From Candidatus Hodarchaeota archaeon (lineage in GTDB: Archaea > Asgardarchaeota > Lokiarchaeia > Sigyniarchaeales > SOKP01): a DNA stretch of 64,000 nt. Shown here piece after piece: positions 51,286 through 56,970 of the stretch. The stretch's first letter is position 1. Each line of letters begins with the position of its first letter. Below the pieces are notes generated by a model that did not search any database, was not told where the DNA came from, and was given only the letters and a program-made list of their open reading frames with translations. The DNA lies in assembly GCA_048886685.1 (NCBI GenBank), contig JBHLKM010000005.1, forward strand, positions 10,958-74,957, in the 5' to 3' direction. Position numbers and translations under genes: made by a program.

Positions 51286-51528
51286 TTATGGTTCAAACTT
51301 TTTGTCGTTAATTATTTTATCTATAGCGAGAAGGCAAGCCTCTTCCCAATCATTGTCAGGATCAATACTCTCACCACAATCCGGGCACCAATCCTCGGGA
51401 TAACCTTCATCAAAATCCTCAGCTTCCATATCCCCATTTAAGATGCTACCACAATAAAAACAAACGCCATCATCATATCTATCTAAGATTTCAGAAATTA
51501 AATTGATTTTTTTCTTTGCATTCATCAT
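51286..51528 (-). CDS. Small acidic zinc-finger protein
   Basis: CFYC...CPDC; likely start MMNAKKK at 51528. Confidence 0.7.
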   Translation of the reverse strand: MMNAKKKINLISEILDRYDDGVCFYCGSILNGDMEAEDFDEGYPEDWCPDCGESIDPDNDWEEACLLAIDKIINDKKFEP

Positions 51529-51839
51529 AATAAGAGAATTTTTATTTAAAATATTATAGAATAAGAAAAAAAACAATATAAGTGTTTAATGTAATTTAAA
51601 AAGGCTAGGATATAATATGAACTTCACTTTATCTTTTATTAGAAATTATTAAAAGATCTATCAAAGTGGTACTATCTATTTGCTAAAATATATATGGTTG
51701 TACTCTATAGATTAGCTAAATAAATTTAAATATATGTATCCTATTTTGTTTTTAAGAATTAAATTGTATTTAATAAATAATTGGGACAGTATTTATCTTT
51801 TCTATAGAAATATAACTGTTAATAAAGGCGATATAATAA

Positions 51840-52877
51840 TTGGATGGCGTTATTAACCTAAAACTAATAGTACTTGGAGAAGGAGAAGTAGGAAAATCAT
51901 CTATAATAAAAACGTTTTTAGGAGAAGCAATTTCTGAGAGATATATGCCTACAATTGGGAGTGTCACGTATAGAAAAGAATATTCATTAAAAGAAATATC
52001 AAAAATTATTAGGTTGACTATCTGGGATCTTGGGGGACAAAAATCCTTCAATCCTTATAATCCCGTTCATTACGCTAATGCGGATTTAGCTATTTTAGTT
52101 TTTGATTTAACCAAATCAGAAAACACATTGAAGAATCTTAAAAAAGAATTCGAGGAAAAAATGAGTAAATCAACGGAAGAATGTATATCTATCTTTGTCG
52201 GAAATAAGTTGGACATATTTGAACTAGGTAAAAAACTTAAAAACACTCTCCAAAATTTTTTTAATGATCGAGATCATTTTATTTTACTTTCTGCTAAAAC
52301 TGGCGAGAATATTGAAGAATGTTTTGAACTTTTGATTTTTACATATCTACAGAGAGCAGAATTATTAACTCCTGATCTCGTTCAAGAAAACTCAGCGAAT
52401 GAGTTTTTAAAATCAATAGGGAAGGATGAGAAGTCTTTAAAAAGTAAAATACTAAATTTAAATTCTATTAATTCTGCTTTAAATAAACATAAGTCAATAC
52501 CTAAAGCCACAGCAGAAGATTCCACCGAAGATAAATCAAGTGAATTAAAGTATCAAGAATTTATTCAACAAGAATTAAGTAAAGTTGGAGATCAGAAAGA
52601 AAATGTACTTGATCAGTTTTTAATAAATTTATCTGAATTAGAAAAGGCATTGACTCACATAAAGAAATCTCATATCAAGTCGGTTGATGAGGTGGTTGAT
52701 AACTTACAAAGTTTATTAATAACCTCAAAAATAGATTTTGAAAAAAATCTTGAATTAATCCAAAAATTAAATAGAGAAGAGAATGAATTAATGATCATCA
52801 GCTCTAAACTTGAAAACGAAATTCAAGAAGCCAATAATAAGGATCCAAATTATCAAAAAAGGATATATAATGTTTAA
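51840..52877 (+). CDS. Rab-like small GTPase fused to a C-terminal coiled-coil/helical domain
   Basis: G1 GEGEVGKS, PTIG, WDLGGQ, NKLD, SAKTG, then about 170 aa helical/coiled-coil tail. Confidence 0.9.
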   Translation: MDGVINLKLIVLGEGEVGKSSIIKTFLGEAISERYMPTIGSVTYRKEYSLKEISKIIRLTIWDLGGQKSFNPYNPVHYANADLAILVFDLTKSENTLKNLKKEFEEKMSKSTEECISIFVGNKLDIFELGKKLKNTLQNFFNDRDHFILLSAKTGENIEECFELLIFTYLQRAELLTPDLVQENSANEFLKSIGKDEKSLKSKILNLNSINSALNKHKSIPKATAEDSTEDKSSELKYQEFIQQELSKVGDQKENVLDQFLINLSELEKALTHIKKSHIKSVDEVVDNLQSLLITSKIDFEKNLELIQKLNREENELMIISSKLENEIQEANNKDPNYQKRIYNV

Positions 52878-52887
52878 TAAAAGGTAG

Positions 52888-53841
52888 GTGATTAAAATTT
52901 CAAGTACCGAACAAGCTTCAATAAAAGAATTACAGAATTTAAGAGAACAATTAAAAAAAATTGATCAGAGATTGAATCAACAGATAAAATCAATAGATCA
53001 GAAAACTCTAGATCACATGAATAAATCTGAAAAGAAATTAACAGAGCAAATATACAAAATAGAAAAGAGCCTAGTCGATCAAATGAAGAAAATGGGACAG
53101 AAAATTGAAGATAACGTCAATAAACTTGATCAAAGTATGACTAACCAAATAAACAAACAAGATGAAGATTTAAATGAAAAACTTAATAAACTTGAGAAGA
53201 GTTTGGATGAGCAAGTTAATAATATTAATAAAAAAATTGAAAATATTACTAATATTTATGATCAGGAGTTAGAAGATAAATATAATAATCTCAATAATAA
53301 AATGGAAGGAATTAACAATACGTTAATTGAAGAATTGAAAGGTGCATCTGACAGATTCGATAAAAATCTTAATAGTCAAATCACAAATGTTGAAGATAAA
53401 ATAAAGATTATAATTGATAGTATAAAAGCAGTCAACAATGATTTTTCTCTAAAATTTCAGAGATTACAGGAAGAATTTGAAACAAAGGAAGAAGTTCTAC
53501 TTGATATGTTAAAGAAATTCGAAGATGAAACTAATGAATTTAAAAATAACCTTAAACCAGAGTTAGAACATCTTAAAAGTCAACAAGATTTGGTCAAAAT
53601 AACAATGGATATACTTAAGAAACAAATTTTTGAGAACGCTAAAGAATGGATTAATGATGAGATAAAACTAGCATGTAAAAATAAAGAAAGAGAAATCTTA
53701 ATGAATTTATGGATTGATGAGTTAAAAGACATAATAGAGGATTTGGATAAATTAAAAGAAACAAATCCTAAAGAATTAAAAATTCATATTAATGAAATTT
53801 CAGCTACTATTGAATCATTTCGACATAAATTTGTTAAATAA
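52888..53841 (+). CDS. All-helical protein with 11-residue (hendecad) repeats
   Basis: IDQRLNQQIKS/IDQKTLDHMNK/SEKKLTEQIYK/IEKSLVDQMKK/MGQKIEDNVNK/LDQSMTNQINK/QDEDLNEKLNK/LEKSLDEQVNN; 10-nt gap from the GTPase gene. Confidence 0.85.
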   Translation: MIKISSTEQASIKELQNLREQLKKIDQRLNQQIKSIDQKTLDHMNKSEKKLTEQIYKIEKSLVDQMKKMGQKIEDNVNKLDQSMTNQINKQDEDLNEKLNKLEKSLDEQVNNINKKIENITNIYDQELEDKYNNLNNKMEGINNTLIEELKGASDRFDKNLNSQITNVEDKIKIIIDSIKAVNNDFSLKFQRLQEEFETKEEVLLDMLKKFEDETNEFKNNLKPELEHLKSQQDLVKITMDILKKQIFENAKEWINDEIKLACKNKEREILMNLWIDELKDIIEDLDKLKETNPKELKIHINEISATIESFRHKFVK

Positions 53842-55515: not shown

Positions 55516-56970
55516 ATGACTAACGAATTGAATGGTGAAGAAAAAGAAACTAAGTCAGACAAGGAAATTGAGAAGATAGATAAGGAATTTTTGTCTAAAG
55601 CTAAAAATTCCAGAGATATGATAGATAAAAAATTGAGAACTTTTGAAGATAGTATAGAAAATATCTCAGAAACAATTACTGAAACAGAAGAACAAAAAGA
55701 AAAAAGCAAAAAAGAAGTAGAGGAAATTAGTGAAGAGGTAAAAGAAGCACAAATACAGCTTGATACAATCTCAAAGAAAATTAACGATAAAGAAGAATAT
55801 CTAACAGCTATTGAAGAAACAATATCTACTCTTGAAGAGAAGTATAATCGAAAAACAGAAGAAATGAAAAATCTGGAAGAACGACTCGAAATTATTAAAG
55901 AGAGTAAAGAAAATCTAGAAGACGAATATAAAGAACTCTTAAGAAATAACGAGCAATTAGTTAAGACATATGAAAGTAGGCAAGTTGATTTAATTGTTCT
56001 CACTGACTCTGTAAAAGAGAAAGTTACATCTCAGGATGAACTAAGAAATAAAATCTCAAAACTGAACCAAGAAATATTGGAAAAAGAAGCAAAAATAGAG
56101 AAACAAAGGGAAGAATCAGAGGCTCTGGAGAAAAAAATAAAAAGTCAGAGTGCTGAAAACGAGACTTTAAGATTTTACCTTAATAAAAATAAGGTTGAAT
56201 TAGAACACTCTAATTCCGAAATTGAGGCAAAAGAAGAGGAAAGGAAACTTCTAACAGAACAAATTGAAAAAAAGGAATTAAAGATAAAGGAAATAGAACA
56301 AAGGATCGAAGAATATCATGACGGTTTTCCTGAAATGGAAAAACAAAGAGAAACATATGAGGAACTTCTTGCTAAGTATAAAGTTCAGCTCACAGATAAG
56401 CAACAGCAGTTAATTGATATGGAATCTCGAATTCAAGAGCTAAAAGAAACGGCCGAATCCTTAGATGATCAGTTAATTACCAAACGAAATTTAATTGATG
56501 CTAATGAAAAAAGAATTGAAGATTTAAAACAAGATATAGAAACGTCAAATACAGAATACCTTGAGAGAGAAGAACGCCTCGATGCTATAACCGAGAAATT
56601 AACGCGTATGGAATTAGATCATGATAAATTAAAAAAAGCTAAAGAAGCAATTGAGAATAGTACAAATGACTCTCGAATTATACTTCAGCAATTGAAAGAA
56701 GAATTAGAAAATCAAGAAAAGGAAATTAGAGATAAAGAAAGTCGTATTCACAGACTAGAAATATTATCTGCGATATATAGAGCTTCAAAATTCTTCGGCG
56801 GAATTTTAATAGGTGCGGGAGTATTCTTTATAATTTGGGCCATAGGAATATTTTTTAATACTATAGATTTAGGGGACGTAAATGTAAATACATTTTTAAT
56901 GGTTATATTCCTGTTAATTGGGGCTATTTTGTCAATTATTTCTGGAATATTCCATCTTGAGAAATCTTAA
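55516..56970 (+). CDS. Long coiled-coil protein with C-terminal two-TM anchor
   Basis: About 420 aa of E/K-rich coiled coil, then FFGGILIGAGVFFIIWAIGIFF and FLMVIFLLIGAILSIISGIF. Confidence 0.85.
   Translation: MTNELNGEEKETKSDKEIEKIDKEFLSKAKNSRDMIDKKLRTFEDSIENISETITETEEQKEKSKKEVEEISEEVKEAQIQLDTISKKINDKEEYLTAIEETISTLEEKYNRKTEEMKNLEERLEIIKESKENLEDEYKELLRNNEQLVKTYESRQVDLIVLTDSVKEKVTSQDELRNKISKLNQEILEKEAKIEKQREESEALEKKIKSQSAENETLRFYLNKNKVELEHSNSEIEAKEEERKLLTEQIEKKELKIKEIEQRIEEYHDGFPEMEKQRETYEELLAKYKVQLTDKQQQLIDMESRIQELKETAESLDDQLITKRNLIDANEKRIEDLKQDIETSNTEYLEREERLDAITEKLTRMELDHDKLKKAKEAIENSTNDSRIILQQLKEELENQEKEIRDKESRIHRLEILSAIYRASKFFGGILIGAGVFFIIWAIGIFFNTIDLGDVNVNTFLMVIFLLIGAILSIISGIFHLEKS

Follow-up and report, generated by a model that had tools for sequence, protein, structure and literature searches.

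Asgard archaeal genomes encode dozens of Ras-superfamily GTPases whose partners are almost entirely unknown, and the question raised by the locus described here is whether one of these GTPases can be matched, from the genome itself, with a protein that it works with. The locus lies in a 64,000-nucleotide (nt) stretch, hereafter the window, of contig JBHLKM010000005.1 (positions 10,958 to 74,957, forward strand; C5 in our numbering) from the Candidatus Hodarchaeota archaeon assembly GCA_048886685.1, a genome of 4.4 Mb in 47 contigs with a G+C content of ~30%. It consists of two genes: open reading frame (ORF) A, which encodes a Rab-like small GTPase with a long helical tail, and ORF B, which encodes an all-helical coiled-coil protein. 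An original prediction, made from the letters of the window, had seen in them a candidate GTP-switched membrane-remodelling module and had recognised no described system. Our full-text literature search likewise found no published description of the two-gene module. We find that A and B form a dedicated two-gene unit which is inherited together, and this we hold much more firmly than the full mechanism that we go on to propose for it; the locus is in this sense an exception among the Asgard GTPases. The parts of the two genes to which we refer are these, in positions of the window.

51840 to 52877, + strand: ORF A, Rab-like small GTPase with a C-terminal helical tail, 345 amino acids (aa) plus stop (Pfam, PDB sequence matches, AlphaFold2 (AF2))
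51840 to 52367, + strand: G domain, residues 1-176, G1-G5 intact including the catalytic Gln67 (Pfam, 38-orthologue alignment, Foldseek)
52368 to 52493, + strand: proximal tail of A, residues 177-218, basic (isoelectric point (pI) 9.2), three short helices with a predicted local distance difference test score (pLDDT) of ~90, conserved FL..I.K.E..L motif
52494 to 52547, + strand: acidic disordered linker of A, residues 219-236, AF2 pLDDT <50
52548 to 52874, + strand: residues 237-345 of A, forming the helical hairpin of its tail, with FLINLSEL and KLNREE.EL as conserved motifs (AF2, alignment)
52878 to 52887, + strand: spacer between A and B, 10 nt, with a Shine-Dalgarno-like AAGGTAG
52888 to 53841, + strand: ORF B, 317-aa all-helical coiled-coil protein (AF2)
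52906 to 52974, + strand: conserved N-terminal motif of B, residues 7-29, TEQASIKELQNLREQLKKIDQRL (motif count in 70 representatives)
52921 to 53415, + strand: 15 in-register hendecads of B, residues 12-176, with hydrophobic positions 3, 7 and 11
53443 to 53838, + strand: conserved C-terminal domain of B, residues 186-317, family-defining

The pairing of A and B was followed through 47 loci with the C-terminal domain of B (B C-domain), taken from species-representative genomes and examined with hidden Markov models (HMMs) for the G domain, the tail and the B C-domain. G domain, tail and B follow one another in this order on one strand at 46 of the 47 loci. The remaining locus, L057, is cut by a contig end: what is left of the ORF upstream of B is the C-terminus of a long-form GTPase, whose G domain would lie beyond the contig, and the locus was counted as paired on its PEVK-like repeats and mini-domain, as in L016, which gives a GTPase-plus-tail upstream of B at 47/47 reference loci. 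The same arrangement, with the GTPase-plus-tail directly upstream of B, is found at 7/7 further loci from metagenomes or metagenome-assembled genomes (MAGs), namely L013, L014, L016, L018, L019, L068 and L069, and the order is kept on the metagenome contigs with the most distant members (L013, L019/L020, L068 and L069), where the spacers run from -4 (an overlap) to 7 nt. The adjacency of A and B is obligate across these loci and conserved well beyond the genus. In the window itself the stop codon of ORF A occupies 52875-52877 and the GTG start of ORF B stands at 52888, leaving the 10-nt gap of the original prediction; A has a TTG start codon, and its orthologues begin at the equivalent position with TTG, GTG or ATG. 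Spacers in most relatives range from -4 to about +60 nt, and wider gaps occur in L060, L062 and L066, which have an intervening small ORF or a start called further downstream. In two related genomes the GTPase gene and B are separated by an additional short ORF (L062:2466-2678 and L066:2462-2707) of ~70-80 aa, whose product weakly resembles the tail.

Conserved order could mean that A and B are neighbours by descent, with no joint function. Within the window's genus this reading has some force: GTPase, B and pfkB stand in order at 11/11 loci, and this within-genus adjacency proves little because the whole block of SGL, GTPase, B, pfkB and tail-anchored coiled coil is syntenic there. These flanks (SGL and a small Zn-ribbon gene upstream, pfkB and the tail-anchored coiled coil downstream) are found in the window's genus only. 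Elsewhere the pair is flanked by a thiolase upstream and a convergent Fer4 gene downstream, by an M32 peptidase upstream together with GARS or Fer4, by PAP2 and AIRS, or by others, so that adjacency is kept in at least 5 flanking contexts, unrelated to one another. Two pairs also occur in tandem (L013, in the order GTPase-B-GTPase-B), and two unlinked ones lie on different contigs (L059 and L060 of MAG DZ2S.378). Maximum-likelihood trees were built for the G domain and the B C-domain (quick searches, with some long branches, as for L018 and L019). Both join L060 to the window's clade as its sister, with Shimodaira-Hasegawa-like approximate likelihood ratio test (SH-aLRT) values of 91 and 95; L059 groups with L058 in both (99 and 94), and so does L062 with L066 (99 and 98). 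These trees point to backbone congruence, short of proving co-duplication. Taken with the short spacers, the unrelated contexts and the duplicate pairs, they argue that the adjacency reflects a genuine pairing beyond local synteny, and association by descent alone was already disfavoured and is in our judgement very improbable.

What, then, are the two proteins? The intact small GTPase with canonical G1-G5 that had been predicted for A was borne out: A matches the Pfam Ras family (PF00071) at 7.8e-28, with 97.5 bits against a cut-off of 21.6, with Roc (84.9 bits) and Arf also among its best Pfam matches, and no septin family among them. All five motifs are present, as GEGEVGKS (G1, residues 13-20), T38 (G2), WDLGGQ (G3, 62-67), NKLD (G4, 122-125) and SAK (G5, 151-153). 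In the alignment of 38 orthologues the P-loop, D63, G66, Q67 at the catalytic position, N122, K123, D125 and S151 are invariant and T38, A152 and K153 nearly so; the switch is therefore under purifying selection, and the GTP switch of A looks functional. The top PDB sequence matches of the G domain are Ypt51, RabF2b, Ypt7, Rab7, Rab22, Rab21, Rab5 and Rab1, the best of them (Ypt51/Rab5, Rab7, Rab1) at 2e-22 to 1e-16, and the Thorarchaeota Rab 7ezb matches too; Foldseek with the G domain returned Rab2, Rab7 and Rab8 at template modelling (TM) scores of ~0.8 relative to the target. Three stretches of A, RLTIW, HYANA and LVFDLT, resemble RabF2, RabF4 and RabF5 when compared by eye. NCBI names the relatives of A 'Rab family GTPase' and those of B 'hypothetical protein'.

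The tail of A (residues 177-345, ~170 aa) is what sets this GTPase apart in its own genome, in which there are 64 matches to the small-GTPase domain and the helical tail is found on A alone. The small-GTPase matches of this genome lie partly in tandem clusters (C12:89050-90587, C27:25150-27407, C4:158940-160647, C9:116679-117976 and C11:107439-108629), and many lie in open frames of 330-900 aa, that is, in other multidomain GTPases. As predicted, the tail has neither a CAAX end nor a transmembrane segment: the last residues are KRIYNV, Cys occurs only at 115 and 161, and no hydrophobic segment is present in the tail (highest 19-residue Kyte-Doolittle mean 0.94). AF2 modelling of A with the 38-sequence alignment (mean pLDDT 76, predicted TM score 0.63) gives a confident proximal segment at 177-215 (pLDDT ~90) with short helices at 185-215, then the disordered acidic linker at 219-236, and then a hairpin of helices 235-275 and 280-334 at pLDDT 61-77. 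The tail is conserved and lineage-specific to the same degree as B, and an hhalign comparison of the tail with the B C-domain gave a probability of 0.2, so the two are not duplicates of one another.

At locus L018 (2794-4656), which belongs to a distant, compositionally different and G+C-richer relative, a G-domain ORF of 174 aa is followed after 20 nt by a separate tail ORF of 181 aa and, 1 nt later, by B. The 181-aa protein has an Arg/Lys-rich N-terminus and aligns collinearly with the tail HMM, A..FL.LIGK motif included (E 2e-5, with this one sequence as the search target), and the FL..I.K.E..L motif sits on this separate ORF. L021, which is closest to the window, also shows a change of frame from G domain to tail, at the same boundary as in L018. 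Either the gene has undergone fission or an assembly error or frameshift has split it. Judged from the separate ORFs of L018, the tail is evidently a separable module. Some orthologues are longer (L016:3915-5851, L057:2-781 and the first GTPase of L013:2-1360), with tails extended by PEVK-like repeats rich in Lys, Pro, Glu and Val; these long forms end with one to three copies of an NPGK(R/K)AV(Y/W)RGKETKGF(L/M)(E/A/D)WK element, which has no Pfam match, and the window's GTPase ends (KDPNYQKRIYNV) where this element would begin.

In B, the at least eight eleven-residue repeats of the original prediction proved to be 15 in-register 11-mers across residues 12-176, of the form x-K-(L/I)-(D/E)-(Q/K)-x-(L/I/M)-x-(E/D)-Q-(I/V/L/M). 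Hydrophobic periodicity in B peaks at 3.65 residues, and its spectral power at 11/3 is 306.7, against 40.9 +/- 13.3 and a maximum of 121 in 2000 shuffles, each scanned over periods 3.0-4.2. At 98.2 degrees the hydrophobic moment stays coherent over 165 residues (0.433), whereas 100 degrees gives 0.189 and the heptad angle (102.9 degrees) 0.059. AF2, with 38 sequences, models B as a single helix of 274 residues (11-284) followed by a helix at 294-316, at a mean pLDDT of 83.5. Its hydrophobic stripe is straight and narrow, taking up 3/11 positions (3, 7 and 11), with ~65 degrees between their centres on an 11/3 wheel; it is flanked by position 10, mostly Gln, and position 4, Asp or Glu, with the Lys-rich positions 2 and 6 on the far side. 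The repeat region has a net charge of -2 and the whole of B one of -9 (pI 5.3), 4 of the 165 repeat residues are aromatic, and no membrane anchor is found in B (highest 19-residue hydropathy mean 0.56).

The repeats had drawn attention to B, yet the B family is defined by its C-terminal 132-aa domain, overlooked in the original prediction, rather than by them. Residues 186-317 show 71% identity per column in a 19-sequence domain alignment. The domain has no Pfam family; its profile yielded chance-level matches only among PDB sequences (best E 0.024, to unrelated proteins), NCBIfam gave on the locus coiled-coil noise only (ZorA, SMC), far under cut-offs, and an ESM Atlas look-up returned nothing >0.86, with TM scores all <=0.31. 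By these searches B stands outside every described family. Against 1.84 billion representatives the profile found 67 proteins, 62 at E <=1e-10, with lengths from fragments to 318 aa, and all 67 carry the domain at, or no more than ~15 residues from, the C-terminus. Among genomes, the domain occurs in 101/132 of the window's GTDB family (Promethearchaeota), in 12/13 genera and nearly always in single copy; elsewhere in the class 1/26 genomes has a match, a weak one (6.6e-6), and the single-contig genomes of family f2 gave no match. In one of the homologues, P0016 (529 aa, on a single ENA contig of 2798 nt), the N-terminus of an ABC-F-type ATPase precedes an almost complete B; this fusion was set aside, probably being an assembly or gene-call chimera.

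The other end of B is conserved too. A motif that runs roughly S-I-K-E-F-Q-K-L-K-E-Q-x-x-K-L-D-Q-K-L (residues 7-29 in the window) is present in the first 35 residues of 29/70 representatives and at residues 36-70 of 0/70, and shuffled N-termini yield it 1.4 times on average. What lies between the two ends varies: in the same-genus orthologues the repeat region is the variable part, with the window having one more 11-mer and three species 33 more residues, and among species the number of repeats changes in steps of 11 or 33 residues. In 46 representatives the region N-terminal to the B C-domain measures 47-232 aa, and 11/3 power exceeds 7/2 power in it in 33 of them. A heptad-periodic minority (P0084, P0092, P0097, P0108 and P0136) has 7/2 power 6 to 60 times its 11/3 power, so that B is hendecad in the window's clade and heptad in others. 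By the alignments and motif counts, the conserved parts of B are its ends and not its repeats, and B is best described as a coiled-coil rod with two conserved ends and a spacer free in length and periodicity.

This description bears directly on the membrane-remodelling reading, in which the 11-mers of B would be 11/3 amphipathic helices of the apolipoprotein, perilipin and synuclein kind that lie on lipid surfaces and coat or shape them, the GTPase governing their attachment to membranes. B shares with apolipoprotein A1/A4/E, perilipin and synuclein an 11-residue periodicity, perfect here over 165 residues, an all-helical prediction and a repeat number that varies by species, as it does in lipid-binding repeat proteins; there are sub-threshold Pfam matches to Apolipoprotein (4e-12), ApoLp-III, Phasin and ApoO, and the basic proximal tail and Lys-rich long-form extensions of A could suit a membrane surface. 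However, the Apolipoprotein match (PF01442) reaches 46.7 bits against a cut-off of 90 and is accompanied by generic coiled-coil families. In class A lipid-binding helices the apolar face is broad and Lys lines its border with the polar side, whereas the stripe of B is confined to three positions in eleven and bordered by Asp/Glu and Gln rather than by Lys or Arg; B moreover is cytoplasmic, has no Pro punctuation, carries few aromatics and is acidic in its repeats and overall. An 11-residue register held over 15 repeats and a straight stripe are instead the marks of a hendecad coiled coil. We regard the heptad homologues as the most telling point, since over 70-115 residues a stripe of period 3.5 winds round the helix and so cannot remain in contact with a flat surface; in P0092 and P0097, whose loci were read, the GTPase gene is directly upstream all the same. 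Conservation at the ends of B, with the repeats variable, tells the same way. The membrane-remodelling part of the original prediction is consequently not supported by these features, and the lipid-helix reading seems to us improbable. Membrane association by another route, via the basic proximal tail, the Lys-rich extensions of the long forms or a partner of the N-terminal motif of B, is possible.

If B is a rod, how might the GTPase be joined to it? That the tail of A pairs with B had been part of the original prediction, and to this part the complex models lend weak support. The tail (residues 170-345, with a 35-row alignment) was folded with full-length B (38 rows), alongside three controls. 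The interaction prediction score from aligned errors (ipSAE) was 0.32 (runs 0.37, 0.32 and 0.32), against 0.00 for each of the controls, an outcome graded 'weak support', with a partner pLDDT of at least 81 and runs agreeing in at least 40% of contacts. In calibration, the passing mark was reached by 58/80 solved complexes and 2/110 mismatched pairs, and scores of 0.60 or less came from 7/80 solved complexes and both of the passing mismatches; unless there was good prior reason to expect the pairing, a pass in that range will therefore be wrong more often than right. Because the genomic prior is strong here, we put physical binding of A and B at roughly even odds or somewhat better.

We propose that the GTPase is held on B via its own helical-hairpin tail, most likely at the conserved C-terminal segment of B, so that the Rab-like G domain would be a nucleotide switch mounted at one end of a ~40 nm rod. 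The switch could control what the other end of the rod engages, or the assembly of rods with one another, and the pair would act as a GTP-regulated adaptor, tether or scaffold. This full statement, in which the tail fixes the GTPase to a coiled-coil rod and both ends of the rod are functional, is offered tentatively, as something nearly but not quite as apt to be right as wrong. The anatomy of the two proteins, the conserved GTPase motifs, the obligate adjacency, the joint inheritance and the coiled-coil character are established here; that A and B bind, where on B they do so, how B oligomerises and what the pair does in the cell are inferred. Several points weigh against it. The score of the tail with B lies at the bottom of the passing range, with no interface reported, and comes from a fold of the tail of A with full-length B. 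Co-transcription of A and B is presumed from spacing alone, and among the profile matches in class genomes and representatives the pair was not found outside one uncultured family.

In a different role B would act on the switch regions and so regulate the G domain, whether as an exchange factor like Sec2/Rabin8 or in the manner of a GTPase-activating protein (GAP) or GDP dissociation inhibitor (GDI). This would suit a one-to-one co-inherited pair, and solved Rab-coiled-coil structures, including nucleotide-free Rab8:Rabin8, turned up when the G domain was compared by fold (4lhx, 4uj5, 7f6j). It draws further on a structural study of Asgard GTPases, according to which the GTPase genes of MK-D1 are generally outside operons with regulators, making partners hard to predict or assign (PMC10933270). 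B, however, has no sequence similarity to any solved protein, and the tail is as conserved and lineage-specific as B itself, with the binding fold having been made with the tail alone; a purely catalytic regulator would also leave the variable-length rod and the conserved N-terminal motif unexplained. We consider such a regulator unlikely. In much the same low range of likelihood we place co-polymerisation of A and B into GTP-controlled filaments, intermediate-filament-like or septin-like. For this B has the requisite long uninterrupted helix in its model and a single-copy gene conserved across the family; hendecad rods occur in bacterial filament formers, and septins combine a G domain with a pairing coiled coil; but filament-forming rods usually keep their length, whereas that of B varies over 47-232 aa, the G domain is Rab-like and not septin-like, and there is no evidence for lateral or longitudinal assembly.

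The tail-held GTPase on a rod can be compared with several described systems. With the Rabs, eukaryotic and Asgard (such as the Thorarchaeota Rab 7ezb), A shares its G domain, five motifs and best structure matches. The prenylatable C-terminal Cys of eukaryotic Rabs is absent from A, which has the 170-aa helical tail instead. Thor-Rab and the MK-D1 Rabs similarly lack the Cys-containing C-terminal extension of eukaryotes (PMC10933270). Complexes of Rabs with coiled-coil proteins (Rabin8/Sec2, FIP3, PDZD8 and the golgin-type tethers) likewise combine a Rab-like switch with a long coiled-coil protein, but here the partner is encoded in the same operon, is without solved relatives and without an anchor, and the GTPase brings its own tail. 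The pair may be golgin-like; the membrane anchor of a golgin-type tether (transmembrane or GRIP-like) is absent from B.

GTPase domains fused to an assembly-mediating coiled coil are found in septins and in the large Rabs (Rab44, Rab45 and CRACR2A). The G domain of A is not of the septin type, in the large Rabs the coiled coil is N-terminal to the Rab domain, unlike in A, and neither group is known to have a dedicated operon partner. The peripheral stalk of A/V-type rotary ATPases is built from a pair of unlike long helices that run into a globular part. The right-handed hendecad coiled coils to which this stalk belongs (PMC3293630, PMC6131620) have the long straight helix and the 3-4-4 hydrophobic spacing seen in B. 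Unlike the stalk proteins, to which B has no sequence relation, B would be partnered by a GTPase tail, as predicted, and not by an ATPase subunit.

The two-gene unit, undescribed until now, is useful because it is tractable: A and B are one Asgard GTPase and one partner, ready for expression in a heterologous host and for biochemical study, and what limits them is a narrow distribution. For eukaryogenesis the unit carries limited weight, given one uncultured family, no detectable eukaryotic relative of B and no membrane link shown. A wider claim would be that A and B constitute a coiled-coil machine switched by GTP and peculiar to this Asgard lineage, and that A is the first small GTPase of the Asgard archaea with a direct partner readable from the genome. 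The tail-tethered G domain would then control assembly or target capture by the N-terminal motif of the rod, an archaeal counterpart of Rab-tether logic with an origin independent of the eukaryotic golgins. This version we consider doubtful.

Two neighbouring genes deserve mention. Downstream of the pair, at 55516-56970 (+ strand), the window encodes a 484-aa protein with ~420 aa of coiled coil followed by two hydrophobic segments at its end; this tail-anchored coiled coil is 72-89% identical among same-genus loci, and pfkB and then the 484-aa coiled coil follow the pair in nearly all of the L021-L057 loci with sufficient flank. A functional cluster of the pair with pfkB and the 484-aa coiled coil was considered for the whole family and rejected, the arrangement being absent from all of L018-L020 and L058-L067; as the 484-aa coiled coil is confined to the window's genus, its link to the pair is genus-level synteny only. 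On the other side, divergent from the GTPase gene, an acidic ORF of 96 aa at 51286-51576 (- strand) has a CxxC...CxxC pattern with a weak double zinc-ribbon match, and L014 has an ORF of 79 aa in the same place.

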